Source: a virus. Taken from it: a stretch of 42,765 nt of DNA. The DNA lies in the IMG/VR virus record IMGVR_UViG_3300045988_173299, positions 1-42,765 of that record; one strand, 5' to 3'. A program made the translations under genes and the position numbers. Of the stretch, positions 4,364 to 42,101 are shown piece after piece (the stretch's first letter is position 1; the number at the start of each line of letters is the position of its first letter). The notes beneath the pieces are model-generated. The model saw nothing but the letters and a program-made list of their open reading frames with translations, made no database searches and was not told the DNA's origin.

Positions 4364-6331
4364 ATGCGCACCATCTCCATCGACATCGAAACCTACTCCC
4401 CAGAACCCCTAGCCTCCGCAGGCGTCTACAAATACGCCGAACACCCAGACTTCGACATCCTCCTGCTCGCCTACAGCATCGACGACCAACCCGTCCAAGT
4501 CATCGACCTCGCCCAAGGCGAAGCAATCCCCACCCACATCCTCGCAGCGCTCACCGACTGCACCATCACCAAATACGCCTACAACGCCAACTTCGAACGC
4601 GTCTGCCTTACCCACTACCTACGAAAAAGAAACCACCTACACCCCGACGCGTACCTCAACCCCCACGGCTGGCACTGCACCATGGTGTGGGCATCCGCAC
4701 TCGGACTACCACGAAGCCTCAAAGACGTCGGCACAGCACTCGGCCTTGAACAGCAAAAAATGCGAGAAGGCCAAGCCCTTATCCGCCTGTTCTGCACCCC
4801 ACAAAAACCCCGCGGCAAACAAGCAGAACTATTCGACACCACCCGCACCAGCCCACGCGACCAACCCGACAAATGGGCCACCTTCATCGAATACTGCCGC
4901 CGAGACGTCGAAGTCGAAACCCGCATCCGCCACAAACTCGACCAATTCCCACTACCAGACTGGGTATGGGGGCAGTACTGGGACGACCAGCGCATTAATG
5001 ACCGCGGCATCACCGTCGACCTGACCCTCGCCAAAGCAGCCATCGACGCCGACACCAACCACCGCAGCACCTGCATGGAACGCGCCCGCCGAATCACCGA
5101 GCTCGACAACCCCAACAGCCCAACCCAACTCCTCGGCTGGCTCAACAACCACGGCTGCCCCATCGACTCACTGGCCAAAGCACACGTCACCGACGCGCTG
5201 ACCACCGCCACCGGGCAAGTGAAAACAGTCCTCGAACTCCGCCAAGAACTATCCCGCTCCAGCGTCAAAAAATACCAAGCAATGCTCGACGCCACCTGCA
5301 CAGACGGGCGCGCACACGGACTCATCCAGTTCTACGGGGCAGGGCGCACAGGACGCTGGGCCGGCCGACTCATCCAGGTTCAAAACCTTCCCCGCAACTA
5401 CCTGCCAGATCTTGACACCGCCAGAGCACTGATCCGCGACGGCAACGCCGACACCGCCGAAATGCTCTACGACAGCCTGCCCGACACACTCTCACAACTG
5501 ATCCGCACCGCGTTCATACCCACACCCGGGACGCGCTTCATCGTCGCCGACTACTCCGCCATCGAAGCCCGCGTACTGGCATGGCTCGCAGGCCAAGACG
5601 ACACACTCCAAGCCTTCCGAGACGGAAAAGACCTCTACTGCGCCACCGCCACAGCAATGTTCGGCGTACCCGTCGACAAACACGGCCCTAACGCAGAGCT
5701 CCGACAAAAAGGAAAAATCGCAGTGCTGGCCTGCGGCTACCAAGGCGGGGTAGGGGCCATCCGCACCATGGGCGGAGAGCGCATGGGCATGACCGACACT
5801 GAAATGAAAAACACTGTCGACGCCTGGCGCAACGCCAACACCAACATCGTCACCTACTGGTGGGACATCGACACCGCCGCGAAAAACACCATCAAAACCG
5901 GCCAACCCCAGCAGGTACGAAACATCACACTGCACATGGACGCAGGCATTCTCTTCATCATCCTGCCCTCCGGACGCAAACTCGCATACCCCGGAGCAGG
6001 AATCGGAACCAACCGCTTCGGCGGAGAATCAATCATCTTCTACGGCCCCGGACTCGGCGGAAAATTCGCCCGCCAAGAAACCTACGGCGGCAAACTCGTC
6101 GAGAACATCACACAAGCAGTCGCCCGCGACCTACTAGCCCACGCCATCGGGCTCATCGAAAACGCCGGCCACCACATCGTCATGCACATCCACGACGAAG
6201 TCGTCATCGAAGCCCCACCGGCCACCACCATCGCCGAGATCTGTGACCTCATGGCCCGCAACCCCACGTGGGCACCAGACATACCACTCACAGCCGACGG
6301 CTACGAGTGCACAAGCTACCGAAAAGACTAG
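4364..6331 (+). CDS. DNA polymerase I family A with N-terminal 3'-5' exonuclease
   Basis: Exo I motif 'ISIDIETYS' and Exo II motif 'YCRRDVEVE'. Pol motif A 'DYSAIEARVLAWLAG', motif B 'RQKGKIAVLACGYQGG', motif C 'IHDEVV'. Confidence 0.9.
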   Translation: MRTISIDIETYSPEPLASAGVYKYAEHPDFDILLLAYSIDDQPVQVIDLAQGEAIPTHILAALTDCTITKYAYNANFERVCLTHYLRKRNHLHPDAYLNPHGWHCTMVWASALGLPRSLKDVGTALGLEQQKMREGQALIRLFCTPQKPRGKQAELFDTTRTSPRDQPDKWATFIEYCRRDVEVETRIRHKLDQFPLPDWVWGQYWDDQRINDRGITVDLTLAKAAIDADTNHRSTCMERARRITELDNPNSPTQLLGWLNNHGCPIDSLAKAHVTDALTTATGQVKTVLELRQELSRSSVKKYQAMLDATCTDGRAHGLIQFYGAGRTGRWAGRLIQVQNLPRNYLPDLDTARALIRDGNADTAEMLYDSLPDTLSQLIRTAFIPTPGTRFIVADYSAIEARVLAWLAGQDDTLQAFRDGKDLYCATATAMFGVPVDKHGPNAELRQKGKIAVLACGYQGGVGAIRTMGGERMGMTDTEMKNTVDAWRNANTNIVTYWWDIDTAAKNTIKTGQPQQVRNITLHMDAGILFIILPSGRKLAYPGAGIGTNRFGGESIIFYGPGLGGKFARQETYGGKLVENITQAVARDLLAHAIGLIENAGHHIVMHIHDEVVIEAPPATTIAEICDLMARNPTWAPDIPLTADGYECTSYRKD

Positions 6332-6344
6332 GAGACCAACCACC

Positions 6345-8771
6345 ATGACCACCACGAGCCGAGAGCTGAAAATAGCCGAGGCACCAACTCGGCTCGCCAC
6401 CCACTGGACAAACCACAAAATCACCTGGCAAGCACTCACCGCACGCCTCCAAGACGCCGCTATTAGCCCCAACACCATTGCCCAGTACCAGGCGCTACCC
6501 AAGGACAAGCAAGCCGACGCCAAGGACGTCGGAGGGTTCGTCGGAGGGCACCTCGCAGAAGGGCGACGCAAAAACGGCCATGTCCTCGCCCGCTCAATCA
6601 TCACCCTCGACATCGACTACCCGCCAGAGGACTTCCTCGACGATCTCGACATCTACGCGGCCGGCATCGCAGGGTGCCTATACTCCACCCACTCCCACGC
6701 CCCAGGGCATGAACGCTACCGGCTCGTCATCCCACTGTCCCGAGATGTCACCGCCGAAGAATACGAAGCCGCTGCACGCAAAATCGCCGAACACATCGGC
6801 ATCGACATCTTCGACGACACCACCTACGAGCCGCACAGGCTCATGTACTGGCCGAGCCGTCCCATCGACGCTGACTTCATCTACCGGCCTCTCGACACCA
6901 CCAACTGGGTCGACCCCGACGACGTGCTTGCCGAATATGACGACTGGCGTGACGTCACCACCTGGCCAGTATCCAGCCGCCAAAAAGACCGGCTCAACCG
7001 TACAGTAGGGCAGCAGGCCGACCCACTAACTAAACCGGGCATGGTCGGCGCGTTCTGCCGAGCCCACACCATCGACGACGCGATAGAAACTTTCCTATCC
7101 GACGTTTACCAGCCCACCAATAACGGCAGGTACACCTACCGGGCAGGTGAATCCACCAACGGCGTCGTCACCTACGGAGACAAGTTCGCGTACTCCCACC
7201 ACGGCACCGACCCGGCCGGCGGGCAGCTCTGCAACGCGTTCGACCTCGTCCGCATCCACCTATTCGGCACCGACGACGCGGACGTTAAACCGAGAACCCC
7301 GGCCCACAAACTGCCGTCATTCAAACGCATGGTGGAGCTCGCCAAAAACGACGAAGCCACCAACCGCCAATACGCCGACGAACTCCGCGAACAAGTCATC
7401 TCCGACTTCACCGACAACGACCAGCAACCCGACACCAGCTGGCTGGAAAAAATCGCCCGCAAAAACAACGGAGCCATCGAAGAATCCCTCGGCAACATCG
7501 CCCTGATCATCACCAACGACCCAGGACTACAGGAAATCAGGTACAACCAACTATCCGAAACCATCGATGTCCGCGACCCCCAAAAACTGCCCTGGCAGCA
7601 AGTCAAACCAGGCTGGTCAGACACCGACATCGCCCAGCTCAAGCTGTACCTAGAAAACCGATACCAGCTCTACAGCTCGACGAAAACCATGGAAGCTCTC
7701 GACATCGCGGCAGGCACCCGCGCATACCACCCAATCCGCGACTACCTCGACAACCTGCCCGCCTGGGACGGGGTACAGCGCATCGACACGCTCCTTGTCG
7801 ACTACCTCGGAGCAGACAACACCGACTACGTGCGCGCAGTCACCCGTAAAACCCTCATCGCCGCGGTAAGGCGCATCTACCGGCCAGGCACCAAGTTCGA
7901 TACCGTGCTGATTCTCTCCGGCCCCCAGGGCACCGGCAAATCCACCCTGTTCGCAAAACTCGCAGGCGACTGGTTCTCCGACGCACTGTCACTGACCGAC
8001 ATGAAGGACAAGACCGGCTCGGAAAAGCTGCAGGGCTACTGGATCCATGAGCTCGGCGAGCTGGCCGGCATGCGCAAGATGGAAGTCGAAGTCGTCAAGG
8101 GCTTCATCTCCCGCACAGACGATAAGTACCGCGCCTCATACGCGCGTGTTGTCGAGTCGCACCCGCGACAATGCATCATCGTCGGCTCCACCAACGCCGA
8201 AAACGGCTTCCTGCGGGACGTCACCGGAAACAGGCGGTTCTGGCCTGTGGCCATCACCGGCGAGTCAGAACGCAAAACCTGGGGGCTGGACGCAGAAACG
8301 GTGGGGCAGATCTGGGCGGAGGCATTGGCCGCGCACCGGGCGGGGGAGCCACTGCACCTGACCGGTGCGCTGGCGGAAGACGCGACTCGGGCGCAGGACG
8401 CGGCCATCGAAACCGATGACCGCGTCGGGGTTGTGCAGGAGTACCTGGACACTGACCTGCCGGCGGGGTGGCGAGAAATGACAGTGCCACAACGCCGCGC
8501 CTACCTAGCAGGCCACGCCCCGTCAGCGGAGTTCGGTGGCGCCCCAGAGACGCGGTTTCCCCGGATGGAAGTGTCGAACGCCGAGATCTGGTCGGAGTGC
8601 TTCGGCAACGAGCCGGGGGATATGCAGCCGAAGGACTCTTACGCGATCAGCGCGATTATGAAGAAACTCGACGGGTGGGAGAAGCCGGGAAACAGAGGAG
8701 GTTTCAAACGTGTGTTCCCATATGGAAAGCAGCGAATTTACCGCAGGAAAGTCGAGCAACCGCCGTTCTAA
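6345..8771 (+). CDS. bifunctional primase-polymerase (PrimPol) / SF3 helicase (VirE/D5-like)
   Basis: RBS aggag precedes the ATG at 6345. N-terminal archaeo-eukaryotic primase-like motifs ('ITLDIDYP', 'STHSH'). C-terminal Walker A 'LSGPQGTGKST' and Walker B region 'CIIVGSTN'. Confidence 0.75.
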   Translation: MTTTSRELKIAEAPTRLATHWTNHKITWQALTARLQDAAISPNTIAQYQALPKDKQADAKDVGGFVGGHLAEGRRKNGHVLARSIITLDIDYPPEDFLDDLDIYAAGIAGCLYSTHSHAPGHERYRLVIPLSRDVTAEEYEAAARKIAEHIGIDIFDDTTYEPHRLMYWPSRPIDADFIYRPLDTTNWVDPDDVLAEYDDWRDVTTWPVSSRQKDRLNRTVGQQADPLTKPGMVGAFCRAHTIDDAIETFLSDVYQPTNNGRYTYRAGESTNGVVTYGDKFAYSHHGTDPAGGQLCNAFDLVRIHLFGTDDADVKPRTPAHKLPSFKRMVELAKNDEATNRQYADELREQVISDFTDNDQQPDTSWLEKIARKNNGAIEESLGNIALIITNDPGLQEIRYNQLSETIDVRDPQKLPWQQVKPGWSDTDIAQLKLYLENRYQLYSSTKTMEALDIAAGTRAYHPIRDYLDNLPAWDGVQRIDTLLVDYLGADNTDYVRAVTRKTLIAAVRRIYRPGTKFDTVLILSGPQGTGKSTLFAKLAGDWFSDALSLTDMKDKTGSEKLQGYWIHELGELAGMRKMEVEVVKGFISRTDDKYRASYARVVESHPRQCIIVGSTNAENGFLRDVTGNRRFWPVAITGESERKTWGLDAETVGQIWAEALAAHRAGEPLHLTGALAEDATRAQDAAIETDDRVGVVQEYLDTDLPAGWREMTVPQRRAYLAGHAPSAEFGGAPETRFPRMEVSNAEIWSECFGNEPGDMQPKDSYAISAIMKKLDGWEKPGNRGGFKRVFPYGKQRIYRRKVEQPPF

Positions 8772-8774
8772 AAG

Positions 8775-9060
8775 GGTGGAACAACCTCGGGGAACAACTT
8801 GTTCCACCCCAGCGCGGGGCGCACGGTAGTGAACTGAATCACAAAATCAGTTGTTCCGCTTGTTCCGGTTGTTCCAAAAGTTGTTCCACCCTAAAAATAC
8901 CCTACTACCTCTATCTTTACCTCTACTGGAACAACTGGAACAAGAAATATAGAAGAAAAGAAAAACATAGGAATAAAGGGGCATACGCCCTATATGGCCC
9001 TTAAAACCCTTAAAACAGCGGAGCTATCTAAAGTTCGCTGTTCCTTGTTCCACCCCACCC
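8775..9060. promoter_or_regulatory. putative origin of replication: at least 10 TTGTTCC/GGAACAA iterons flanking an AT-rich core
   Basis: GGTGGAACAAC (8775), GGAACAAC (8791), TTGTTCCACC (8799, 8881, 9044), three spaced TTGTTCC (8851-8875), TGGAACAA x2 (8927-8944). AT-rich stretch 8891-9010. Immediately downstream of the primase-helicase gene. Confidence 0.55.
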
Positions 9061-9100: not shown

Positions 9101-9499
9101 ATGCGAGAAAAACAAGTCGAACAAAAGTTCGCATACGCCATAAAACAAGCGGGAGGCAAAGCACTAAAACTCACCAGCCCCAACCTCGCCGGAGTGCCCG
9201 ACAGACTCATCCTCATGCCAGGAGGACGAGCTGCATTCGCCGAAATCAAAGCCCCCGGCAAAAAACCCAGACCACTCCAAATCCACCGCATCAACCAACT
9301 CGCAGAGCTCGGATTCACCACCTACATCATCGACCACCCCAACCAAATCCCAGACGTGATCAATGCACTACACACCGCACCCATACCAAGCCTTCACCAC
9401 CAACTACATCGAGACCCACCCGCAAGCAGCCATCATTCTTGGAATGGGAATGGGCAAAACCATCATCACCCTGACCGCCATCAACAACCTGATCTATGA
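9101..9499 (+). CDS. VRR-NUC domain nuclease
   Basis: PD-(D/E)XK motifs 'GVPDRLIL...AEIKAPGKK...Q...L'. The His-rich tail overlaps the next gene by 137 nt, so the true 3' end is uncertain. Confidence 0.6.
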   Translation: MREKQVEQKFAYAIKQAGGKALKLTSPNLAGVPDRLILMPGGRAAFAEIKAPGKKPRPLQIHRINQLAELGFTTYIIDHPNQIPDVINALHTAPIPSLHHQLHRDPPASSHHSWNGNGQNHHHPDRHQQPDL

Positions 9500-10724
9500 C
9501 CGCTTCACCGTCCGCAAGGTCCTCATCATCGCTCCCTTGCGAGTCGCCCGCGACACCTGGCCCCAAGAAATAAACAAATGGGACCACCTCACCAACCTCC
9601 GAACCGCAGTCATGGTCGGCGACAAACACACCAGAGACCAAGCCCTCAGCACCGACGCTGACATCTACATCACGAACCGCGAGAACCTTCCCTGGCTCGT
9701 CGACCACGTTGGCCACGATTGGCCTTTCGACATGGTTGTCATCGACGAGCTGAGTTCTTTCAAGTCTCACCAGGCCAAGAGGTTCAAAGCCCTGCGGAAA
9801 ATGCGCCCCCACATCAACCGCATCATCGGACTGACCGGGACCCCAGCCCCCAACAGTCTGATGGATCTATGGGCACAGTTCGCCCTCATCGACGGAGGAG
9901 ACCGGCTCGGAAAATTCATTACCCGATACCGCAACCAGTACTTCCTGCCGGACAAACGCAACGGCGCACAAATCTACACCTACAAGCCCAGACCAGGAGC
10001 CGAACAAGAGATCTACGACGCCATCAGCGACATCACCGTGTCCATGCGTACCACCGACTACCTCGACCTACCCGCAGTCACCTACACCAACCACCCAGTA
10101 ACCCTCAGCGCCCCGGAGCGGGCAGCCTACGACCGACTTAAAAAAGACATGGTCCTCCAACTAGGTGACGACACCATCGATGCTGCAAACGCGGCCGCGC
10201 TATCCGGAAAGCTCCAACAACTCGCCTCCGGCGCCATCTATATCGACGACGAGCACAACACCACCACAGTGCACGCCCGCAAGCTCGACGCACTCGAAGA
10301 TCTCATCGAGCAGGCCAACGGCGCCACCGTCCTTGTTGCCTACTGGTTCAAGCATGAAGCCAGTCGCATCCTCGACCGGTTCCCGCAAGCCCGAGCTCTG
10401 GCCACAAGCCAGGACTTTGCCGACTGGAACCGCGGCAAGATACCCGTCGGGCTGATTCACCCGGCTAGTGCCGGTCACGGCCTGAACCTCCAGGCAGGCG
10501 GCCACATCCTCGTGTGGGTGACCACGCCCTGGTCGCTTGAGCTGTACGAGCAGACCAACGCCCGCCTGCACCGGCAAGGGCAAACTGAGCCGGTCAGCAT
10601 CATCCACCTTGTGGCCACGGACACCATCGACACGAGGGTAGGTGCCGCGCTGAGCGGAAAATCCGTGACGCAGGATGCCCTCGTAGAAGCTGTCGTAGCA
10701 GAACTGAGCAAGGAGAACCAGTAG
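9363..10724 (+). CDS. SNF2-family DEAD/DEAH helicase
   Basis: Q-motif 'PHPYQ', Walker A 'GMGMGKT', DEXH-like 'VVIDELSSFKS'. C-terminal helicase motifs 'GLNLQAGGHILVW' and 'HRQGQTEPVSIIHL'. Confidence 0.85.
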   Translation: MHYTPHPYQAFTTNYIETHPQAAIILGMGMGKTIITLTAINNLIYDRFTVRKVLIIAPLRVARDTWPQEINKWDHLTNLRTAVMVGDKHTRDQALSTDADIYITNRENLPWLVDHVGHDWPFDMVVIDELSSFKSHQAKRFKALRKMRPHINRIIGLTGTPAPNSLMDLWAQFALIDGGDRLGKFITRYRNQYFLPDKRNGAQIYTYKPRPGAEQEIYDAISDITVSMRTTDYLDLPAVTYTNHPVTLSAPERAAYDRLKKDMVLQLGDDTIDAANAAALSGKLQQLASGAIYIDDEHNTTTVHARKLDALEDLIEQANGATVLVAYWFKHEASRILDRFPQARALATSQDFADWNRGKIPVGLIHPASAGHGLNLQAGGHILVWVTTPWSLELYEQTNARLHRQGQTEPVSIIHLVATDTIDTRVGAALSGKSVTQDALVEAVVAELSKENQ

Positions 10725-11323
10725 TGCTAACAACAGAACAAGCACAGCAACTAATCCGTGCGTATACCAGCATCAACCACCTGTCTCAACGACTAGAGCA
10801 GATGAAACTCCCTACCAACGGCACCACAGCCGATGCTTACCGCCCCCCACGGACACCAGGGCCAACCCCGCCTTGCAACCTCACCTGGGTCGACTTCGAC
10901 TGGCAACTGACAGACATGCTCGCCCGAACCGCGGCACAAGCACGAACCGATATCGGCAACCTCTACGGCCTACCAGTACGGACGCTGTCTGGCTACTCAG
11001 GATGGCTCCACGGCATTAGAGACCACCTCATAAACAGCGAATGGATCAACAGTGAGACCTGGTTAGCGCACCAATACGAAACTGAACCCAACGAGCACAC
11101 CATGGCCAGCCTCACCATCAGTTATGCCAGCTATCTACAAGATGCCCTCGAACCACCACTCAACGGCCGGCCTGCGGGCACTGCACTCGAGGTCGCATGG
11201 GAGACCGGCATACCGGTCGAGACAATCCGCACCTGGGGCAAACGTGGACGAGTACCACGGTTCATGGGGCCGCACGGAGCCTGGCTCTATAGGGTTGCAG
11301 ATATTAAACAGATGCAAGCGTAA
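10724..11323 (+). CDS. hypothetical protein with C-terminal excisionase/MerR-type HTH (possible late-gene regulator)
   Basis: GTG start overlaps the SNF2 stop. C-terminal motif 'ALEVAWETGIPVETIRTWGKRGRVP...GAWLYRVADI'. It is the last gene before the low-GC island and the packaging genes. Confidence 0.5.
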   Translation: MLTTEQAQQLIRAYTSINHLSQRLEQMKLPTNGTTADAYRPPRTPGPTPPCNLTWVDFDWQLTDMLARTAAQARTDIGNLYGLPVRTLSGYSGWLHGIRDHLINSEWINSETWLAHQYETEPNEHTMASLTISYASYLQDALEPPLNGRPAGTALEVAWETGIPVETIRTWGKRGRVPRFMGPHGAWLYRVADIKQMQA

Positions 11324-11482
11324 GAATGCGCATGTACCAGTGCGTATGCGAAACTAGTGGGGAGCCACCGCAAGATTCATCTTGCGAATATTCATCATCT
11401 CCGCCTAGCATTGGTGTCGAAAGAAGCACTAACAACCCCGCCTCTTTCCGTTTGGACTTCACCAAACGCTCCGATCAAAAGA

Positions 11483-11521
11483 AAAGGAGCTACGCAGTAA
11501 CTGATGCCACGTAGCTCCTTT
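11483..11521 (-). terminator. perfect 12-bp hairpin (AAAGGAGCTACG...CGTAGCTCCTTT); U-tail on the minus strand
   Basis: Perfect inverted repeat. The minus-strand downstream sequence is TTTTCTTTTGATCGG. Sits directly 3' of the minus-strand small ORF. Confidence 0.55.
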
Positions 11522-11526
11522 AGGCC

Positions 11527-11679
11527 CTAGAGCATATCTAGCCAGTCGCTAAGACGTGCGCCCACACGTTCAACGACATCTATGGCTCGAATCGCTCGGT
11601 ATGCCCAGACGAAAACCCTCATCTTCGTCTGGGCATTCTTATTGCCCAGACCTGATTTGGATGTATCTTGGCGTTCCAT
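11527..11679 (-). CDS. small basic ORF (50 aa) in the low-GC island, below the ORF-track cutoff
   Basis: Minus strand: GAGGAGGTG RBS, 8 nt, then ATG. Translates to MERQDTSKSGLGNKNAQTKMRVFVWAYRAIRAIDVVERVGARLSDWLDML*, followed by the terminator above. Contains an internal 11-bp palindrome, so it could instead be a structured RNA. Confidence 0.3.
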   Translation of the reverse strand: MERQDTSKSGLGNKNAQTKMRVFVWAYRAIRAIDVVERVGARLSDWLDML

Positions 11680-12037
11680 AAGGCCATCACCTCCTCGAAG
11701 GTCTCATGCCCCACAACGGTGACCACGAGACCGCCACGTGAGCGGCCCGTGGGGCTCTCGCGTGAGGCGGTGATACTCCGAGCGACTGCCCGAAGCGTAA
11801 ATAAGTTTAGCTTGAGGTGGGGAAGGTCTGAAATAGCTACTACATTTAGCGGTGTTCCGATCTCTCGCCTTGGATTATGTAGCGCCAGACGCTAGATGTT
11901 GTACATGCTGCAGTGGAAGTGGAGCGGTGGTGGTAGGTCACCTTATGTGTGATATGTGTCTCATTTTTGTTTTCGCTTGCCTGCTGAACCACCCGTGTGG
12001 TTAGAATCAAGTCAGTACAAGTGTGAGCCCATAACCC

Positions 12038-12073
12038 TGACCACTACAGGGGTATGGGCTTTACTCGTATCGA
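12038..12073 (+). promoter_or_regulatory. 13-14 bp imperfect stem-loop (AGCCCATAACCCTG...CAGGGGTATGGGCT) in the low-GC island
   Basis: Inverted repeat seen in sequence, followed by TTTACTCG. Possible terminator or sRNA element. Confidence 0.35.
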
Positions 12074-12158
12074 CCCAAAAGCGTGTTCGAAACATTAAGC
12101 CCGAATAATCCGCAATGCCAGATAGCATCTCCCGCAAACAATGAAGGGAGGTGAAGGC

Positions 12159-12329
12159 ATGGAGTACATCGATAAGAACTTCGAGAAAAAGCTCGGTGGC
12201 GACGTCCCAATCGGAAAGACGCAACGCGAAACCGAGCGCAATCTTGAAAAGCACTTCAAGAAGGCAGGGCTCGAGACTAATAGCGCTGGCATCCGCAAGC
12301 TAGCTAAGGACCTGCATAAGAAGCGCTAA
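12159..12329 (+). CDS. small Lys-rich basic protein (56 aa), moron
   Basis: Strong RBS AAGGGAGGTG lies 7 nt before the ATG. Product is MEYIDKNFEKKLGGDVPIGKTQRETERNLEKHFKKAGLETNSAGIRKLAKDLHKKR. Local GC is about 47-50% against about 63% for the genome. Confidence 0.5.
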   Translation: MEYIDKNFEKKLGGDVPIGKTQRETERNLEKHFKKAGLETNSAGIRKLAKDLHKKR

Positions 12330-12358
12330 CGATGCTAGGTGGGAGTGGGTGATGAATC

Positions 12359-12721
12359 ATGGCGCGAGCCAAGCGCATCTGCTCCCACCCATCGTGCGGA
12401 CAAATAGCCGAGTCGGGCTCTGGGCTCTGCGCCGTCCACGTCGCTGAACGCGACGCCAAACAGTGGCGGACAACGCCAACCAAACGCACCCGCGATTGGA
12501 CCGAATATAACCGCCGCCGCCGAGTGGTAACGGAATGGCGAGCCAAGCACGGCGACCTGTGCCCTGGATATAAACGGCCGCCGCATCCCGCCAATGACCT
12601 TACTGCTGAGCATGTGCATGCGGTCGCGGAAACTGGTGACGGCCGTGGGCGGCTGACTGTTTTGTGTCGGGCGTGTAACTCGAGGCATGGGGCGGAGACC
12701 GCCCTCAAGTATCGAACCTGA
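12359..12721 (+). CDS. HNH endonuclease (packaging-associated)
   Basis: CxxC...C plus 'LTAEHVHAV' and 'LCRACNSRHG' HNH motifs. Lies immediately upstream of terS, as in cos-type HK97-like phages. Confidence 0.85.
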   Translation: MARAKRICSHPSCGQIAESGSGLCAVHVAERDAKQWRTTPTKRTRDWTEYNRRRRVVTEWRAKHGDLCPGYKRPPHPANDLTAEHVHAVAETGDGRGRLTVLCRACNSRHGAETALKYRT

Positions 12722-12865
12722 AGCCCATGTCTGTGACGCATCAGCAATCAGGCTTCATGTCTGCTACCCACGGGGGTGGGGCGACGCTCGACGCCCGCCT
12801 GCACCGCGCGTGAGGTGAAAAAAGGTCTGTACGAGTTCCCAACATGTGGGAAAGGAGGGGATTTT
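12722..12865. other. candidate cos/packaging-initiation region
   Basis: Lies between HNH and terS. Has the inverted repeat GAAGCC...GGCTTC with a duplicated CATGTCTG, then a GC-rich tract. Assigned by position only. Confidence 0.3.
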
Positions 12866-13310
12866 GATGCCGGGACCAGCGCCAAAACCAGACTCGGAAC
12901 GACGTCGCCGCAATGCTCCGATGGCCAACACCGTGCGCCTTCCGAGAGAAGGACGTAAGGGGAGGGCACCAAAGTGGCCGCTCGGAGGACGAGCCCCACG
13001 TGGATGGGCTGACCTCTGGAAGAAACCCCAGGCGGTGATGTGGGAGCGCTCTGGGGACGAGATAGTGGTCGCGCGGTACTTGATAATCAGGAACCTGATT
13101 CAACAGCCGGAAAATGCCGACCAGATTAACGCGACAGCACTGTCGGAGCTGCGGCAATTGGAAGACCGCCTAGGGCTGTCGCCTATGGCTCGCCACCGGC
13201 TGCGGTGGGAAATTGTCGAAGACGAAGTCGAAGAGCGGCGCCAAAGTAAGCGAGCTGCCAGTACGGCAAACCGGAGAGCACGGTTGAAGGTGGTCGCTGA
13301 CGAAGCCTGA
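12866..13310 (+). CDS. terS: terminase small subunit (P27-like)
   Basis: RBS aaggagggg lies 6 nt before the ATG. The N-terminus 'MPGPAPKPDSERRRRN' is the P27-family hallmark. Positioned before terL. Confidence 0.7.
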
Positions 13311-13333
13311 GCGTGAGGGGAGCGTGATGGGTA

Positions 13334-14902
13334 ATGCCGTGGCGCGGACCCGAATACGAAGGCGAGTTTCCGTCTTTGGGATGGTCGGTGGTCGATTGGA
13401 TTGAGTCGAACTGTGTCATACCTGACGGTGACCACAAGGGCGAGCCTTACATTTTGACTGATGAGATGGTGGCTTTTTTGGTTCATCATTATCGGTTGAA
13501 GCCGGAAGCGACGGAGGATAAGCCGCGCCGGGCTTGGAACTATCGTCGCTCCCAGTTGGTTCGTCCACAGAAGTGGGGCAAGGGGCCACTGACCGCGGCG
13601 ATGATTTGTGCTGAGTCTGTGGGACCTGTGGTGTTCGCAGGGTGGGATGCTTCCGGTGAGCCTGTTGGTAGGCCGTGGCCGACACCGCTGATTCAGGTGA
13701 CGGCGTCGTCAGAGGACCAGACAGCGAATGTTTATGCGGCGCTGCAGCCGATGATTGAGGAAGGGCCGCTGACTGAGGTCATCCCAGACACGGGCGATAC
13801 TCGAATCAATCTGCCTGGCGGTGGTCGCATCGACCCGGTGACTTCGAAGGCTCGTTCGCGGCTGGGGCAGCGCGTGACATTTGTGGTGCAGGATGAAACC
13901 CAGATGTGGACGCGGTCCAATGGTGGCGTGTTGTTGGCTACGACGCAGCGTCGCGGTCTGGCGGGCATGGGTGGTCGTTCTGTGGAGACGACGAATGCGT
14001 GGGATCCTGCTGAGAACTCGGTGGCGCAGCAGACGTTTGAGTCGAAGGCTCCGGATATTTATCGGGATTTTCGTCAGGCTCCGGCGTCTTTGTCGTACCG
14101 GAATAAGCGTGAGAGGGCGCGTATCCACCGGCATGTTTATGGCGATTCGTGGTGGGTCGATATGGAGAATATCGAGTCTGAGGCTGCGGAGCTTTTAGAG
14201 ACGGACCCTGCGGAGGCGGAGCGGTTTTTTGGGAACCGCATTGTGTATGGCCGTGGCGCGTGGATTCCTGCTGATACGTGGGAGTCTGGTGACCGTGTGG
14301 AGCAGCCTGCTGATGGTGCGCCGATTTGTTTGGGCTTCGATGGTTCGGAGAACAATGACTGGACTGCCATTACTGCTATTTCGATGGATGGGACGGTGTT
14401 CATTCCGACGTTTGGTCCTGATGAACAGCCGACGTATTGGAATCCTGATGAGCATGGCGGTCGTATTCCTCGTGATGAGGTTGATGCTGCGGTCGATGAG
14501 TTGTTCTCGCGCTATGACGTAGTTCGGATGTATTGCGACCCGCAGGATTGGCGTTCTGAGATTGGCGACTGGTCTGTGCGGCATGGTGATGAGCGTGTTT
14601 TTGAGTGGGCTACTAACCGTGTCAGCCAGATGTTTGAGGCTCTCAAGACGTTTGAAACGAACCTTGCTACGGGGCGTGTAGGCCATGACGGCACTAAAAC
14701 TCTTGGTATCGCGGTGGCGAATGCTAGGAAGGTGGCTCGACCTGGCCAGAAGTACATTCTCGGGAAAGCCACGGAAAGTCAGAAGATTGATATCGCGATG
14801 GCGATGGTGCTCGCGCACGAGGCGTGGGTGAATTCGATGGCGCTGGGGTGGGCACCGCGTGAGCAGAACAGGGTTCTGGTCTTTGGGCGTAGGAGGCGAT
14901 GA
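13334..14902 (+). CDS. terL: terminase large subunit
   Basis: 522 aa. ATPase region 'VTFVVQDETQMW'. RNaseH-like nuclease region 'ICLGFDGSENNDWTAI'. Located between terS and the portal gene. Confidence 0.85.
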   Translation: MPWRGPEYEGEFPSLGWSVVDWIESNCVIPDGDHKGEPYILTDEMVAFLVHHYRLKPEATEDKPRRAWNYRRSQLVRPQKWGKGPLTAAMICAESVGPVVFAGWDASGEPVGRPWPTPLIQVTASSEDQTANVYAALQPMIEEGPLTEVIPDTGDTRINLPGGGRIDPVTSKARSRLGQRVTFVVQDETQMWTRSNGGVLLATTQRRGLAGMGGRSVETTNAWDPAENSVAQQTFESKAPDIYRDFRQAPASLSYRNKRERARIHRHVYGDSWWVDMENIESEAAELLETDPAEAERFFGNRIVYGRGAWIPADTWESGDRVEQPADGAPICLGFDGSENNDWTAITAISMDGTVFIPTFGPDEQPTYWNPDEHGGRIPRDEVDAAVDELFSRYDVVRMYCDPQDWRSEIGDWSVRHGDERVFEWATNRVSQMFEALKTFETNLATGRVGHDGTKTLGIAVANARKVARPGQKYILGKATESQKIDIAMAMVLAHEAWVNSMALGWAPREQNRVLVFGRRRR

Positions 14903-16317: not shown

Positions 16318-17867
16318 TGGCGGAAGTGTATTCGTTTCGCTCACTGCCTCCGGGGGTTCGTGAGGAAGCTGAGGCGCGTGGCGTAGTGGTGCGGCGCACG
16401 CTTACTGATATGCGGACGCGGGTGATGCCTAGGCATCGGCCGATGGATATTGACCATTGGGAGCGTACTCGTGGTCCGGAGGTTATCCGTTTGGTGACGC
16501 AGGCGCAGGCCGAGAATGCTGCGCTGGTTGACCGCACATTTAATTTGACGCTGTTGGCGCAGGGGTACATGACGGAGCCGATTGGGGAAATTCGGCCGAC
16601 GGCGTTTGCGGGCGTGATGCCTGATGGTGACCCGCTGGATCTGATTCCGCAGGCGGTGGCTAACCGTGTGCGGGAGCGACTAGCAACGGGCGCGGAACCG
16701 CTGCAGGCGTGGCAAGCAGGCGGGAAGCTTCTTGCGACGATTGTGCAGACCGCGTTATCGGATACGCAGCGTATGGCGAAGATGGTGGCGGGGTTTGCCC
16801 GGCCCCGGACGTTGTACGTGCGGATGTTGCGGCCACCGTCGTGTTCGCGGTGTACGGTTTTGGCTGGCAAACGCGGGTTCTGGGACAAGCCATTTCAGCG
16901 GCATCCGGGTTGTGATTGCACGCAGGTTCCGGTTCCGGATTGGTCTAAGGACACGTTCGAGGGGCCTGCTTTTGACCCGGTGGCGGCGTTTGAGGAGTTG
17001 CCGGTATCTGAGCAGGACCGGTTGTTTACGAAGGCTGGCGCGGAGGCGATTCGCTCGGGTGCGGATATTGCGCAGGTTGTGAACTCGCGGTCGGGGATGA
17101 GTCATGTTGGTGATTCGTATACGCGGGTGGGGTCAACTGCTCGGGGTAAGGCGGTGCAGTATTTCGTTGGGGAAGACGGGAAGCTGCGTAAGCAGGTGAA
17201 TTACCGGAGGCTGTCGGTTCCGAAGATTGTGGAGATGACTGAGGGTAACCCTGATGGTCGTATTGCTTTGTTGTACCGGCATGGGTATATACGTAGCGTT
17301 AAACCGGGCAGCGAGAAGGGAGTTGTGCTGCGGAGTACTGAGGCCCGTCGTGAGGCAGGTCAGTTGGCGCTGAAGAAACAGCTAGAAAGTGACTTGCCAA
17401 AGATTGATATGAGTGCGCCGGTACGCCACGTGGTCGATTCAAAAATTCGTATCCGAAGAGGTGCAATTTATAGTTCCGGTGGCCATTCTTATGAAGCCGG
17501 AGAATCTCTGCTTGCCGTAATTCGCGCGCATCCGGAGCTCTCTTTTCGAGGAGAGAAGACTTTCTTTCCTCCATACGAAGGCGGCAAGGAGGCTCTGGCA
17601 GCATGGCTCGAGGAGGATCCTTCACCGCTGAAAGCAGCGCTCGAAAACCCAAAGGAAGTGGTGGCCACTCGAACTGGGCGTAAGGTTAAGTCATTAGTTA
17701 GTGGGCCTGATGGGGAAACTATCGAGGTAGAGTTTGTACTTGAACCGGCGCGCAAGTCGTCAGAATATGATTTCAAAATTGCGACCCTGTACCCGATTTC
17801 TGGAAAAGGCGTATCGTCGATTAAGGACAGTGGAGGGGTTATCACCGGCCCGTTGATGGAGGCATGA
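16317..17867 (+). CDS. MuF-like head morphogenesis protein with a low-GC C-terminal extension (putative fused toxin domain)
   Basis: GTG start overlaps the portal stop. Position (portal, then MuF, then scaffold) is typical of SPP1 gp7/MuF-like proteins. GC drops from about 65% to about 50% from around nt 17270 (about aa 318) to the end. Confidence 0.55.
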   Translation: MAEVYSFRSLPPGVREEAEARGVVVRRTLTDMRTRVMPRHRPMDIDHWERTRGPEVIRLVTQAQAENAALVDRTFNLTLLAQGYMTEPIGEIRPTAFAGVMPDGDPLDLIPQAVANRVRERLATGAEPLQAWQAGGKLLATIVQTALSDTQRMAKMVAGFARPRTLYVRMLRPPSCSRCTVLAGKRGFWDKPFQRHPGCDCTQVPVPDWSKDTFEGPAFDPVAAFEELPVSEQDRLFTKAGAEAIRSGADIAQVVNSRSGMSHVGDSYTRVGSTARGKAVQYFVGEDGKLRKQVNYRRLSVPKIVEMTEGNPDGRIALLYRHGYIRSVKPGSEKGVVLRSTEARREAGQLALKKQLESDLPKIDMSAPVRHVVDSKIRIRRGAIYSSGGHSYEAGESLLAVIRAHPELSFRGEKTFFPPYEGGKEALAAWLEEDPSPLKAALENPKEVVATRTGRKVKSLVSGPDGETIEVEFVLEPARKSSEYDFKIATLYPISGKGVSSIKDSGGVITGPLMEA

Positions 17868-18166
17868 TGGATTTTTATGATGCGATTGCACGTATCGAAG
17901 CGTCACCATCGGTGTCTGTACGGTACGGCGATACAGGGGTACAGGATTTTGAGCTAGAAGAATTTCTTGCTGGGCTTGTACAGGATAAGGCAGTTGTCAC
18001 TGATATTGAGGCTAAGCGTGAGTTTCTGGCCTGGTTCGATGAAGATGAAGATTGGCTAGATCCGGATTGGGACGACCCCGTGGTTGAACAAGCAGTCAGG
18101 GATTTACACGCTTTCGCCAGTCTGGAACCAAAGATAGCAATCAAGGTTCCAAAGCCACCGGCTTAA
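17864..18166 (+). CDS. small highly acidic protein (candidate immunity protein or DNA mimic)
   Basis: 100 aa. 'DEDEDWLDPDWDDP' with acidic residues far outnumbering basic ones. Low-GC. Start overlaps the MuF stop (ATGATG). Followed by a terminator. Confidence 0.5.
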   Translation: MMDFYDAIARIEASPSVSVRYGDTGVQDFELEEFLAGLVQDKAVVTDIEAKREFLAWFDEDEDWLDPDWDDPVVEQAVRDLHAFASLEPKIAIKVPKPPA

Positions 18167-18181
18167 GACGCACGCCAACGC

Positions 18182-18217
18182 AACCCGTTCTGGTTTTCAC
18201 CAGAGCGGGTTTTTTCA
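18182..18217 (+). terminator. rho-independent terminator (AACCCGTTCTGG..CCAGAGCGGGTT plus T6)
   Basis: 12-bp stem with one G·U pair, then TTTTTT. Confidence 0.65.
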
Positions 18218-18253
18218 TGCCAAATTTTTCTTTTCCGAGATGGAGGAAAGCAC

Positions 18254-18859
18254 ATGTTTATGAATCGTCCACTGTGGATCCGTGCGATTGAGGGCACGGA
18301 CGGGAATGGAGCCGCCAGTGCCCCAGCCAGCGAGCAGCAGACCGGTGAGCCCACCGGCCAGGCTGACGAGGTGGGGCAGGGCAGCCAGGACGACGCCCCG
18401 CCCGCCGAGGGGGAAGAGAATCCCGACGGGCGAGGCTCGAAGAGCGCAGTGCTCGCGGACTTGGCGCGAGAGCGCGACAAGCGGCAGGCACTCGAAGCGA
18501 AACTTGCGGAGTTCGAGAAGGCAGAAGAAGAGCGCAAGCGGTCGGAGATGACCGAGATTGAACGTCTGCAGGCCGACCTTGAAGCCTCCCGTAAGGCTGA
18601 GGAAGACGCCCGCGCGGAGATCGCGAAGCGTGACCTTGACGCAGAGCGCGCGCGGATTGCCGCGGAGTTCAAGATCCCAGCCGCGATGGCTGGACGCATC
18701 ACCGGTGCGACGCCGGAAGAGATGCGCGACGACGCTAAGGCTTTGGCTGAAGCGATTGGCCCCTACACGGGGCCTGCGGATAAGTCGGCGGGTCGTGGCG
18801 GTGGCCAGGCGACGCCGACATCGTTGGAAGCCGCCATCGCGGCTAAGTACCAAAACTAA
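18254..18859 (+). CDS. scaffolding protein
   Basis: 201 aa. Predicted alpha-helical, charged and coiled-coil-like ('EAKLAEFEKAEEERKRSEM...'). Directly upstream of the major capsid gene. Confidence 0.65.
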   Translation: MFMNRPLWIRAIEGTDGNGAASAPASEQQTGEPTGQADEVGQGSQDDAPPAEGEENPDGRGSKSAVLADLARERDKRQALEAKLAEFEKAEEERKRSEMTEIERLQADLEASRKAEEDARAEIAKRDLDAERARIAAEFKIPAAMAGRITGATPEEMRDDAKALAEAIGPYTGPADKSAGRGGGQATPTSLEAAIAAKYQN

Positions 18860-32966: not shown

Positions 32967-34186
32967 CATTTAAAACGTTCGTAATGACTGACGAATGGCG
33001 AGTAGCTCAACCCGGCGACGTCGACGATAAAGACACCCAGGTACTGCGCCGCGGCATCACTGGGCAAGCCACACTCACTCCGGTATTGCCGGAGGGACTG
33101 CGTGTTGATGATGACCCCCGAGCATGGATGCTTCTGAATCGGGAGCACAAGTGCGATTATCATCTCGGCCGACTTGTTGGCCCCGACGGGCTAGATGGTG
33201 TCCGGCTTGTTGGATGGGTGGATGACAAACCGGTGGCATGGCGGGTGAGCAGACGACTGCGTTTTGGTGGCGAGTGGGCAGCGCCACTGGAAGACATTGT
33301 GGTCGCCCCGGTCGACGGCACCGCGCACCTGCCAGATATTGTGCCCGTGGACGCGTCAGAGTTCGAGAAACTTCCACAGGTCGCGGTAGCCCTCGATGGG
33401 GTCATGCGCAGCGTGGAAGAGATGAAAGCTGGGTTTGCAGAAGCCCGAGACAACGTTTCACGCGCCATGCACAGTGCAGACCGGACGGAGAAAGCAGCTG
33501 CGCGAATCCCTGACTTTGAGCAGGCAGTCAGGACTACCGCTGAGGCGCGAGATCATGTTGTCACGCTTGTGCAACGAGCGGAAACTGCTGCTGGGGATTC
33601 GGAGCTGAGCGCAGAAGAAGCGTCAGCGTCGCAGGTAGCGTCGGAGTCTGCTCGTGATGAGTCCCGAAGTGCGCGTGATGTAGGCACGGCTGCTCGTGAT
33701 GAGGTCACAACCTTGGCGGCGTCGGTGAAGGCGGATCGCACCGCGGTAGAAGAAGCAGCGCGCAATGCTGAGGCCGCTGCGAAACGAGAAGCTGCAGCAG
33801 CTGTAGCGAAAATTGTTGATTCAGCGCCAGAGCATCTGGATACTCTGGCGGAAATCGCCACACTGCTAACGGAACAGGGTGATGCTGCTGCAGTCTTGAC
33901 TCACACGGTTGCAGGTAAGGCTGCTCTTAAGCACACGCACGAGGTGGGTGATGTGGCTGGGCTGGAAGCTGCACTTGATAGTAAGGCGTCGGCGTCGCAT
34001 CAGCATCAGATTTCGCAGGTTGAAAACCTGCAATCCACCCTTGATGGCATCAAGGATGCTTTATCGAATCGTGCGCGTGGGAATTTTGACTTCGTAGTTT
34101 CCACGAAGCCACCAGCGCCGGGAACCCCTTCGACGACCGTGACAGTGATTACGGAGGTGATGCCGGGTGATTTACCACGGGAATAA
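32963..34186 (+). CDS. tail fibre-like protein (Ala-rich coiled coil)
   Basis: Long 'AAARIPDFEQAVRTTAEARDHVVTLVQRAETAAGDSELSAEEASA...' helical segment. Confidence 0.45.
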   Translation: MTFKTFVMTDEWRVAQPGDVDDKDTQVLRRGITGQATLTPVLPEGLRVDDDPRAWMLLNREHKCDYHLGRLVGPDGLDGVRLVGWVDDKPVAWRVSRRLRFGGEWAAPLEDIVVAPVDGTAHLPDIVPVDASEFEKLPQVAVALDGVMRSVEEMKAGFAEARDNVSRAMHSADRTEKAAARIPDFEQAVRTTAEARDHVVTLVQRAETAAGDSELSAEEASASQVASESARDESRSARDVGTAARDEVTTLAASVKADRTAVEEAARNAEAAAKREAAAAVAKIVDSAPEHLDTLAEIATLLTEQGDAAAVLTHTVAGKAALKHTHEVGDVAGLEAALDSKASASHQHQISQVENLQSTLDGIKDALSNRARGNFDFVVSTKPPAPGTPSTTVTVITEVMPGDLPRE

Positions 34187-42057: not shown

Positions 42058-42101
42058 TGGGTCATGTAAGCGATTAGCGACACCGGGAGGTGAGAAAGAA
42101 G

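Follow-up and report, generated by a model that had tools for sequence, protein, structure and literature searches.

The DNA analysed here, a viral record of 42,765 nucleotides that we refer to as the window, contains an interval (11324-12340) between the early gene of a 199-aa protein and the HNH/terminase module. We found that this interval consists of two unrelated units: an optional cassette, which carries a minus-strand open reading frame (ORF) designated m50, and a conserved unit (11886-12329), which comprises the control region of the late operon and its first gene, p56 (Table 1). The first-pass annotation had described a single 1-kb island with two divergent small ORFs. The relatives did not bear this out, as the right half is kept together with the HNH/terminase module in loci L005, L006-10 and L012, and L010 carries the 56-aa gene without the cassette; m50 and p56 are therefore not a functional pair. 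When the relatives were aligned, the proposed island was variably present over 11360-11880 only, and 11886-12329 was conserved. Similarly, the label of a moron or ncRNA locus suited the left half, a presence/absence cassette with its own terminator and promoter-like sites, and did not suit the right half, where the stem-loop near 12040, the promoter-like hexamers and the 56-aa gene appear to be parts of the late operon.

Table 1. Features of the interval, in window coordinates; promoter-like sites and RNAs are predictions.
Feature	Position	Strand	Description
3' flank of the 199-aa early gene (10724-11323)	11324-11359	+	Conserved; L010 alignment extends to ~11359; outside the cassette
Optional cassette (moron), ~520 bp	11360-11880		Absent from L010; other inserts elsewhere
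Antisense promoter-like site facing the m50 3' end	11382-11411	+	-35 TTGCGA, 18 nt, -10 TAGCAT; predicted
Predicted cis-antisense RNA	11418-11644	+	Inferred from the antisense promoter-like site
Intrinsic terminator of m50	11474-11521	-	Perfect 12-bp stem, 15-nt loop, tail UCUUUUG
m50, 50-aa ORF	11527-11679	-	Basic non-hydrophobic protein, predicted single helix; homologue P0007
Three-part inverted repeat in the m50 ORF	11601-11651		c 11601-11613, b 11624-11636, a 11643-11651
Conserved leader, three-way junction	11680-11774	-	Anti-SD/SD helix encloses two hairpins
5'-terminal hairpin of the predicted mRNA, 9 bp	11775-11796	-	Kept in L022
Promoter-like site for m50	11804-11832	-	-35 TTCAGA (11832-11827), 17 nt, -10 TAAACT (11809-11804); predicted
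Tandem 9-bp repeat TATGTGTGA / TATGTGTCT	11944-11961	+	Upstream of the late -35; read from the sequence
Late-operon promoter-like element	11977-12007	+	-35 TTGCCT, 19-bp spacer, -10 TAGAAT; predicted
Late-leader hairpin, then box TTTACTCGTATC	12026-12071	+	14-nt arms, one mismatch
p56, 56-aa Lys-rich gene	12159-12329	+	First late-operon gene; ends 29 nt upstream of HNH (12359-12721)

The base composition of the interval was lower in G+C than that of its surroundings (51.6% versus 58.5% for the whole window), and the interval ranked second-lowest among 1017-bp windows, at the 0.8th percentile. The dip reported previously is thus real; the range of 47-50% given for it does not describe the whole interval, within which 300-bp windows fall to 49-50%. 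The GC skew changes sign nearby. Perfect hairpins of 11 bp or more numbered five in the window, compared with 0.2 expected from shuffles, and two of them lie within the interval. A generic sigma-70 scan returned no promoters, and the terminator-like sites in the generic scan (3 versus 2.7 expected from shuffles) were at chance level; both long hairpins escaped it, having loops of more than 8 nt. Genes for tRNA or tmRNA were absent, an Rfam search of positions 10500-13500 gave only chance-level matches (E of 0.66 or higher, scores of 21 bits or lower), with none in L022 or L023, and DNA searches of phage and plasmid records revealed no match for the interval or for L022. The distance between the two small ORFs, put at about 480 bp in the first-pass annotation, was measured as 479 bp (11680-12158). 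Six further ORFs of the interval (62, 75, 46, 54, 50 and 53 aa) were rejected as genes on account of their negative codon-usage scores; they also lacked a Shine-Dalgarno sequence (SD) by eye, and the 62-aa ORF was not kept open in L010, nor the 75-aa ORF in L022.

The minus-strand 50-aa ORF with a strong ribosome-binding site was confirmed. Its SD, GAGGAGGTGAT (11696-11686), lies 6 nt before the ATG and matches the anti-SD complement at 10 of 11 positions. The core GGAGGTGA is present in only four copies in the 42.7-kb window, both strands counted, and two of these are the SDs of m50 and p56; a third, at 34153, is just upstream of a GTG ORF listed at 34167. The fourth copy is at 42086. Word-indexed protein searches with m50 recovered identical copies only, and an exhaustive HMMER search identified one homologue, P0007 (51 aa, 49% identity, E 4e-4), encoded at locus L022. 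We dismissed the other match in that search, P0006, a repetitive sequence of 1029 aa. In a set of 1.8 billion representative proteins, two sequence types of the m50 family were found.

Upon comparison of m50 with P0007, we found pN of 0.28 and pS of 0.67 (dN/dS ~0.2), with 18, 12 and 26 differences at the first, second and third codon positions, respectively, which is a third-position excess. The start and stop codons align and the ORFs differ by a single in-frame indel of 3 nt, compared with indels of 1 nt in the leader. The ORF DNA is 63% identical, with synonymous sites saturated, and the codon-usage score of m50 is the best among ORFs of the interval except p56. From this comparison we conclude that the m50 ORF codes for a protein. 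Neither m50 nor P0007 is hydrophobic (highest Kyte-Doolittle 19-aa window 0.79 and 0.75, respectively) and both are basic (net charge +3 and +4). The AlphaFold2 (AF2) model of m50 is a helix over residues 7-49 with a pLDDT of 72. No match of m50 to any toxin, defence or other family was found in Pfam, PHROG, PADLOC, NCBIfam or PDB sequences. The earlier remark that nothing here belongs to a known family stands, as neither small protein nor the leader matched Pfam, Rfam, PADLOC or PDB.

The distribution of the cassette revealed that it is both dispensable and mobile. In L010, ~11359 is joined directly to ~11881 in a clean indel (blastn and alignment), so the cassette is not essential as a DNA site. 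The same slot is occupied by other accessory genes in L001, where it holds a defence-candidate gene (PADLOC PDC-S42), and in L006-9, where it holds a DUF4258/DUF2283 cassette; L002 and L003 have no slot, and their HTH gene is followed directly by HNH. A block of 1.4 kb that includes the cassette (11246-12657) differs between the window and L012 by 1 nt, with identity of 75-88% otherwise, which indicates transfer of the cassette between phages by recombination. The homologous unit in L022 has flanks unrelated to those of the window. When the alignment was read at the cassette borders, neither inverted nor direct terminal repeats were apparent, which gives no hint of a MITE or transposon origin. 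Scanning IMG/VR and JGI metagenomes with back-translated queries and DNA patterns did not turn up additional copies. Four metagenome matches to a 19-mer of the leader were discarded as chance, as they lay on unrelated contigs of 61-73% GC and the similarity ended at 19-21 nt. The cassette has a GC content of 53.2% (51% within the m50 ORF). Besides m50, the minus-strand genes are the integrase and an ImmA-like peptidase; because the cassette points in the same direction as these two and against the lytic genes, it is predicted to be expressed from the prophage.

The predicted minus-strand mRNA of the cassette, of ~325 nt, showed extensive structural conservation. In L022, the 5'-terminal hairpin carries two compensatory and three one-sided changes and no broken pairs. 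The SD is paired with the anti-SD ATCACCGCCTC (11774-11764) in the minimum free energy (MFE) and centroid folds of both the window and L022, as well as in the consensus fold, all computed in silico. The 5' hairpin and leader together are 82.5% identical to those of L022 (measured), and the leader alone is about 90% identical, as judged by eye from the alignment. In a single pairwise comparison, two independent cassette sequences being available in all, the consensus fold of the two mRNAs had an energy of -133 versus -61±5.6 in column shuffles (z -12.8), and 19 compensatory pairs were counted versus 7.0±2.2 in shuffles (maximum 14). The consensus of the sense strand contained 107 pairs versus 83 for the antisense strand, with 12 versus 2 one-sided G-U changes. 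These values argue that the structure of the cassette mRNA is conserved. The anti-SD/SD helix itself is invariant and is therefore backed by conservation, not by covariation; the folds suggest that the SD may be occluded in vivo.

Within the m50 ORF, element b of the three-part repeat has two possible partners, a (9 bp) and c (a perfect 13 bp), and both pairings are kept in L022. The perfect 13-bp inverted repeat formed by c and b was absent from the first-pass annotation. As read from the alignment, the compensatory changes in the repeat alter amino acids in L022 (Q to R and W to R). On the plus strand, TCTTATTG follows the c:b hairpin. The perfect 12-bp hairpin with a U-tail noted earlier was recovered at 11483-11494 / 11510-11521, 5 nt past the minus-strand stop codon and followed by TCTTTTG. 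The terminator of L022 has a different stem sequence and TTTTTAATCG at the same position, after a conserved CTCTAGGGCCTA.

One promoter-like site per strand was found in identical alignment columns of the window and L022. The site for m50, with a predicted transcript start at ~11797, is the sole match on the minus strand within the cassette; the same column of L022 reads CTGACC-18-TACACT, in surroundings of only 36% identity. The antisense site of L022 (TTGACA-17-TAGCAT) matches at 10 of 12 positions and that of the window at 8 of 12. The predicted antisense RNA, which has a fold z of -8.3, would end either at a shared hairpin (~11524, ~105 nt) or at the 13-bp hairpin with its U-rich tail (~11644, ~225 nt). 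After the shared hairpin, the plus strand has a poor tail, UUUAGG in the window and AAUAGG in L022. The internal 13-bp hairpin is not established as the antisense terminator, as it folds about equally well on both strands and the energies give no strand preference. Beyond the mRNA, the conserved patches GAAAGAAGC and CTTTCCGTTTGG make up hairpin arms on the plus strand. In RNAduplex, the 5' portion of the predicted antisense RNA paired with the leader of the mRNA no better than shuffled RNAs did, and a par-like second contact is thus unsupported. From these sites we infer that the cassette is probably transcribed and that the antisense RNA probably exists.

On the other side of the cassette border, 11886-12158 has the features of a control region for the late operon, upstream of p56, HNH and terminase. 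The hexamers with the 19-bp spacer, TTGNNN-19-TANNNT, are common to the window, L010, L006 and L005, and L001 has TTGACA-19-TATAAT; the spacer length is conserved in five relatives. In the window, this spacer holds the dyad AACCAC-N4-GTGGTT (11987-12002), which is unique in the window, and the tandem repeat upstream is kept in L010 and not in L006 or L005. The 14-bp stem-loop placed at 12038-12073 by the first-pass annotation exists, and its arms lie at 12026-12039 / 12047-12060; they are 93% complementary, the mismatch being A.G. G+C-rich hairpins of different sequence occupy the same place in L005, L001, L002 and L003. The box TTTACNCGTAYC is kept in L010, L006, L002 and L003, and the promoter-like element, hairpin and box are conserved across seven relatives. 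The promoter-like hexamers noticed earlier in the noncoding DNA thus include a conserved late element, which is not island DNA. The 199-aa protein adjoining the late region has an HTH at its C-terminus, with MerR/HTH_17 matches of E ~1e-3 that fall below the Pfam cut-offs.

The plus-strand 56-aa ORF was likewise upheld, with its strong ribosome-binding site (GGGAGGTGA, 4 nt before the ATG). Homologues of p56 form four clusters with 82-100% identity, and p56 is directly upstream of HNH in all loci that carry it. Comparison with L005 gave dN/dS of 0.09 at dS of 1.3, which indicates strong purifying selection on p56, and its codon-usage score ranks within the top 0.6% among small ORFs. The AF2 model of p56 contains three helices (pLDDT 71). 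Fold and sequence searches of PDB and BFVD revealed nothing significant, the best match being an uncharacterised Gordonia phage protein (E 0.39), and p56 had no match in Pfam, PADLOC or PDB.

The best explanation of these results, to which we assign a probability of about 55%, is that the cassette is an antisense-controlled, translationally locked small-protein module and that 11886-12329 is the late control region plus p56. The cassette would be a self-contained moron between the last early gene and the late control region of a temperate Corynebacterium siphophage, transcribed against all lytic genes and probably from the prophage. Its mRNA would begin with a protective 5' hairpin, after which the first 11 nt of the leader would pair with the SD and keep the m50 ORF translationally closed, and transcription would stop at the strong terminator; the opposite-strand site would direct a convergent antisense RNA over the 3' part of the m50 mRNA. 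The late unit would consist of a sigma-A-like promoter with its dyad spacer, the leader hairpin, the box and then p56, presumably a three-helix protein tied to HNH and terminase. The architecture fits the earlier suggestion of a toxin-antitoxin pair or sRNA, as the mRNA is predicted to sequester its SD and the convergent antisense promoter-like site is conserved; m50 may have toxic or protective activity. A bolder proposal, which we put forward tentatively, is that the cassette represents a new family of type I toxin-antitoxin-like or antisense-gated modules, the first in an actinobacterial phage, with a cytosolic arginine-rich helix as effector and a 97-nt leader that would be a new class of cis-regulatory RNA locking translation until infection, induction or RNA processing.

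A simpler reading is possible, and we consider it less probable: the cassette would be a plain moron, that is, an accessory small-protein gene (anti-defence, exclusion or host-modulating) without toxin-antitoxin logic, with an mRNA structure that serves stability only and a non-functional antisense site. The soluble, basic, helical character of m50 without a membrane segment agrees with this reading, as do the ordinary protein genes that relatives carry in the slot, the prediction of the antisense RNA from one conserved promoter-like motif and the negative trans-pairing test. However, stability alone is insufficient to account for a leader so well conserved beside saturated synonymous sites, for an SD that lies fully within a long-range helix in the predicted folds of both homologues, for compensatory changes that alter amino acids within the m50 ORF, and for conserved DNA past the terminator that forms opposite-strand hairpins. 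The strong conservation of structure over the whole transcript, the perfect 13-bp and 12-bp hairpins and the amino-acid-changing compensation, which suggests that pairing outranks protein sequence at some codons, could also be read as a structured RNA of ~325 nt, alone or with an antisense partner, in which m50 is untranslated. We consider such a non-coding locus very unlikely, in view of the dN/dS and third-position excess, the 3-nt indel in the ORF as opposed to 1-nt indels in the leader, the conservation of start, stop and length at 49% identity, the well-placed SD and the codon-usage score.

It is just as improbable that the interval is ordinary intergenic DNA, consisting of a terminator region of the early operon and a late promoter with small ORFs that arose by chance. 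This is partly true, as 11886-12158 resembles a late control region, and the hairpins at 11369-11386, 11483-11521 and 11601-11636 could stop plus-strand early transcripts; nevertheless, the comparative data refute it for the cassette and for p56, given that L010 does without the 520-bp cassette, that L012 and L022 show it to be mobile and that both small ORFs are under purifying selection. A DNA-level site, such as cos/pac or a replication origin, would explain the hairpins as DNA palindromes together with the nearby flip in GC skew, and we regard it as extremely improbable. The iteron cluster typical of an origin is at 8778-9051, and in the nearest isolated actinophages TerL begins no more than ~0.8 kb into the record. 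If actinophage records begin at the genome end, as we assume, cos would lie between HNH and terS (12722-12866), and part of that segment is conserved even in L002 and L003.

What had been a vague low-GC island is thereby resolved into a conserved late control region and a hotspot for accessory genes, situated where early and late genes meet in an uncultured Corynebacterium prophage group. The cassette offers a compact, experimentally tractable phage small protein with layered and partly predicted RNA control, namely the 5' hairpin, SD sequestration, an alternative pairing inside the ORF and, probably, an antisense RNA. If it is a type I toxin-antitoxin or abortive-infection module, this class would be extended to Actinomycetota and to non-membrane effectors. 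Because the m50 family is very rare, its general importance is limited unless a function is found.

The moron concept was defined for HK97 and lambdoid phages by Juhala, Hendrix and colleagues. As in a moron, the cassette is an extra transcription unit located between genes that are adjacent in a relative (L010; L002/L003), with lower GC than the window; it is oriented independently of the lytic operons, and its slot holds other cargo in further relatives. It has a clear, positionally conserved terminator of its own, and its promoter is a conserved motif for which the generic scan was blank. The differences are a cargo of 50 aa with an elaborate, conserved mRNA structure and the probable antisense partner.

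The layout of the cassette is also similar to that of Firmicutes type I loci, namely txpA/RatA and bsrG/SR4 of B. subtilis and par fst/RNA II of E. faecalis. 5' UTRs that sequester the ribosome-binding site have been described, as have convergent antitoxin RNAs on prophages that overlap at the 3' end (PMC8309996); ZorO and AapA1 are examples of the former (PMC8309996, PMC5416894). The cassette shares with type I loci a location on a prophage, a size of ~0.5 kb, an ORF of fewer than 60 aa that appears to be translated, a strong terminator, a structured mRNA with the SD occluded by the 5' UTR (in silico here) and a convergent antisense promoter-like site across the terminator. It differs in that the antisense RNA is predicted and in that m50 has neither similarity to a described toxin family nor a transmembrane helix, and m50 therefore departs from the usual hydrophobic product of type I toxin genes.

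For the late region, comparable systems are lambda Q-pR'-tR', the RinA/ArpU-type activators upstream of terS and the MerR-type promoters with a 19-bp spacer. The 199-aa protein differs from these regulators in that it shows no significant homology to Q, RinA, ArpU or MerR proteins. As in the late regions of temperate phages, however, its gene, which encodes an HTH protein, lies directly upstream of a promoter-like element, a hairpin and the packaging genes, and as in MerR-type promoters, the late promoter-like element has a 19-bp spacer with a dyad.

The window, 42.8 kb long, is the complete contig of a temperate Corynebacterium siphophage or prophage. Its closest relative with a name is a prophage of Corynebacterium sp. 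H113; among isolated phages, no TerL was more than 56% identical to its own. The plus strand carries nearly all of its genes, as listed in the table below. The GC skew changed sign at the early/late junction, from about -0.25 over the early genes (1-11 kb) to about +0.25 over the late genes (13-17 kb), although both groups share one strand, and the AT skew shifted there in the opposite sense.

Features in and around the early/late junction (window positions)
Feature	Position	Strand	Remark
PD-(D/E)XK/DUF2800 nuclease, PolA, VapE-like primase-helicase, VRR-NUC	early genes	+	
SNF2 helicase	9363-10724	+	
199-aa protein	10724-11323	+	weak C-terminal MerR/HTH_17-type motif
Antisense promoter-like site	11382-11411	+	TTGCGA-18-TAGCAT; L022 TTGACA-17-TAGCAT, same alignment column
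12-bp hairpin	11483-11494 / 11510-11521	-	perfect; U-rich tail
m50 gene	11527-11679	-	50 aa
13-bp inverted repeat	11601-11613 / 11624-11636		perfect; within m50 ORF
Sense promoter-like site	11832-11804	-	TTCAGA-17-TAAACT; L022 CTGACC-18-TACACT, same alignment column
p56 gene	12159-12329	+	56 aa
HNH	12359-12721	+	
TerS	about 12867-13310	+	
TerL	13334-14902	+	
Portal, then remaining late genes	after TerL	+	
Integrase, ImmA-like peptidase	right end of window	-	

The first-pass annotation had described 11324-12340 as a low-GC island with two small genes and several hairpins, and this observation proved real and mostly accurate. The interval has 51.6% GC against 58.5% overall (0.8th percentile of 1017-bp windows), with values of 49-50% confined to local 300-bp windows; the lowest-GC 1-kb stretch of the window (17251-18267, 50.3%) lies in the head-gene region. 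Both small ORFs and their ribosome-binding sites were as claimed: of the four copies of GGAGGTGA on the two strands of the window, two are the m50 and p56 sites and a third (34153) lies just 5' of a GTG ORF at 34167. The perfect 12-bp hairpin was confirmed, while the second stem-loop exists but sits at 12026-12060 rather than 12038-12073 and contains one mismatch; the perfect 13-bp inverted repeat within the 50-aa ORF had been overlooked. Perfect stems of at least 11 bp number five in the window, against 0.2 expected from shuffles, and two of the five lie in the interval.

To compare the junction among relatives, 14 loci were fetched via HNH and the small proteins and more via TerL, and were mapped onto the window. 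One of these, L018, has a TerL 77% identical to that of the window phage yet is labelled Staphylococcus chromogenes, which suggests assembly contamination or mislabelling. In L010, the 199-aa gene with 36 nt of 3' flank joins straight to about 11881, and some 520 bp (11360-11880, hereafter the cassette) are missing. In L006-L009, a 1-kb cassette for DUF6941, DUF4258 and DUF2283 proteins, a toxin-antitoxin-like pairing, stands in place of 11290-11983 (L006 870-1857). In L001, a single gene (L001 5002-5880) replaces 11296-12347, and its 292-aa product matches the PADLOC candidate PDC-S42 (E 1e-35) and NCBIfam 'LAPAL' (E 7e-50; DUF7946). In L002 and L003, HNH directly adjoins an unrelated HTH gene; a further slot of L002, located between HNH and terS, is taken by an AAA_33 kinase-like ORF (about 6370-6776). 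Because the left half is thus replaced or missing, whereas 11984-12929, with the promoter-like element, hairpin, p56 gene, HNH and terS start, is kept at 85-88% identity in L006-L010, the interval is a composite of an accessory-gene hotspot and part of the packaging module. An IS element (HTH_Tnp_1 and rve transposase genes) lies downstream of HNH in L006 (3384-4619) and L007 (3298-4089), and L006-L009 show a broken-up HNH match and look like decaying prophages. The flanks of another locus, L012, are 60-85% identical to the window, yet a 1.4-kb block (11246-12657) that runs from the C-terminal HTH of the 199-aa protein through the cassette, the late control region and p56 into HNH, most of which it includes, differs by one base (11898), which indicates recent recombination by mosaic exchange.

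Word-indexed searches with the 50-aa product m50 returned identical copies only. When HMMER was run exhaustively against 1.84 billion representatives, it revealed one homologue, P0007 (51 aa, 49% identical over the full length, E 4e-4), on two short contigs (L022 and L023) whose flanks are unrelated to the window phage. The start and stop codons of the two genes align, the one indel in the ORF is 3 nt while those in the leader are 1 nt, differences by codon position are 18/12/26, and pN of 0.28 and pS of 0.67 give a dN/dS of about 0.2; judged by these sequence comparisons, the coding of a real small protein is settled. The product is basic (net charge +3, and +4 in P0007), has no hydrophobic segment (highest KD window 0.79), was predicted by AF2 to form a single long helix (residues 7-49, pLDDT 72) and had no match in Pfam, PHROGs, PADLOC, NCBIfam or PDB.

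Of all the results, the strongest and the most original concerns the m50 mRNA structure, which is conserved and covarying and is predicted to sequester the Shine-Dalgarno (SD) sequence. Identity to L022 is uneven: 82.5% in the 5' hairpin and leader (about 90% in the leader without the hairpin, with the alignment read by eye), 63% in the ORF and 36% 5' of the predicted start. In both homologues the leader starts with ATCACCGCCTC, which in predicted folds pairs with the SD region GAGGAGGTGAT, 65-67 nt further downstream, and MFE, centroid and consensus folds all show this helix as the closing stem of a three-way junction. A 9-10-bp hairpin directly 5' of the leader and a terminator directly after the stop codon are kept in position in L022 with different sequences. 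A 9-13-nt element is present in triplicate within the ORF (a, b and c); its copies can pair either as a:b or as b:c, two hairpins that exclude each other, and L022 keeps both by compensatory substitutions that change amino acids. Folded as a consensus, the two full mRNAs reached -133.2 kcal/mol against -61.3±5.6 for column-shuffled alignments (z -12.8); compensatory pairs numbered 19, compared with 7.0±2.2 in 200 shuffles (maximum 14). The opposite strand scored lower (-95.6 kcal/mol, 14 compensatory pairs, one-sided changes 2 versus 12 on the mRNA strand). Since the fold beats the shuffles and the opposite strand scores lower, we infer that RNA structure is selected in the minus-strand RNA, i.e., the mRNA. 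The leader is predicted to keep translation of m50 locked.

When both strands of the two homologues were scanned for promoters with relaxed criteria, the few hits coincided in alignment column. Judged from the sense site, the predicted start falls at the foot of the 5' hairpin, and the antisense site is directed into the m50 gene at its 3' end. Conserved patches 3' of the terminator lie outside the mRNA and form hairpin arms on the opposite (plus) strand; because of these arms and the conserved promoter-like site, a convergent cis-antisense RNA is plausible, and m50 is probably under antisense control. Two ends are conceivable for the predicted RNA, the shared hairpin and the internal 13-bp hairpin. 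The latter folds equally well on either strand; the sequence after it is UCUUAUUG in the window and UUUCAUUA in L022. A test for extra trans pairing of this RNA with the leader was negative.

In the right half, TTGNNN-19 bp-TANNNT lies 5' of the p56 gene in the window, L010, L006 and L005, with TTGACA-19-TATAAT as the L001 equivalent. The spacer sequence TGAACCACCC is common to the compared loci and belongs in the window to the dyad AACCAC-N4-GTGGTT, the sole copy in the 42.7 kb. All those loci have a G+C-rich hairpin 15-45 nt further 3', as do L002 and L003; its sequence varies between lineages, and the box TTTACNCGTAYC directly 3' of it (12060-12071; also in L010, L006, L002 and L003) is kept even where the hairpin sequence is wholly different. 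These features would fit a late promoter under control of the neighbouring 199-aa HTH protein, whose HTH hits are below family cut-offs, and possible roles of the hairpin are attenuation, termination and mRNA stabilisation. The p56 gene has its SD 4 nt from the ATG, gave a dN/dS of 0.09 (dS 1.3) against L005 and lies directly upstream of HNH in every locus carrying it; the homologues and the SD are in line with this 56-aa form, and the database annotation has 62 aa from an upstream ATG. The predicted fold has three helices, and searches for relatives gave no significant structural or sequence match. A small local hairpin (12126-12154) is predicted in which the p56 SD (GGGAGGUG) pairs with CAUCUCCC, located 12 nt upstream of it; L010 and L006 could form this pairing too.

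Other explanations of the cassette were weighed. Ordinary intergenic DNA is refuted by the indel, and the codon-level evidence stands against an RNA-only gene; a plain moron with a stabilised mRNA is a further rival. As for a cos or ori site, the cassette is dispensable and the iteron cluster sits elsewhere. At 8778-9051, 11 copies (6 exact) of GTTGTTCC in both orientations, with an A/T-rich stretch, occupy the 329-bp gap just 3' of the VapE-like primase-helicase gene (6243-8771); the cluster includes a perfect 11-bp hairpin (8774-8809) and is likely an iteron-type replication origin. In the nearest isolated phages, TerL lies at most about 0.8 kb from the record start, which would place cos between HNH and terS if, as we assume, these records start at the genome end. 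The 145-bp gap there (12722-12866) has a G-rich tract, GGGGGTGGGGCGACG, and its right part with the terS start (12766-12886) is kept even in L002 and L003; this region is the probable cos region.

The earlier idea of a moron, toxin-antitoxin or sRNA locus was partly right, and for one half of the interval only, the cassette, the other half being packaging module. The cassette is a moron, apparently autonomous, in the same orientation as the lysogeny genes. Sequestration of the ribosome-binding site in the 5'-UTR and convergent, 3'-overlapping antitoxin RNAs have been described (PMC8309996, PMC5416894), and the cassette has a layout like that of prophage-borne type I toxin-antitoxin loci, with the antisense RNA predicted. 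The usual product of that class is a hydrophobic membrane peptide, which m50 is not; because of this, and with any toxicity hypothetical, we say that the cassette apparently works like a type I module but do not count it among them. It is a new, very rare phage moron with a predicted RNA architecture like that of type I toxin-antitoxin systems.
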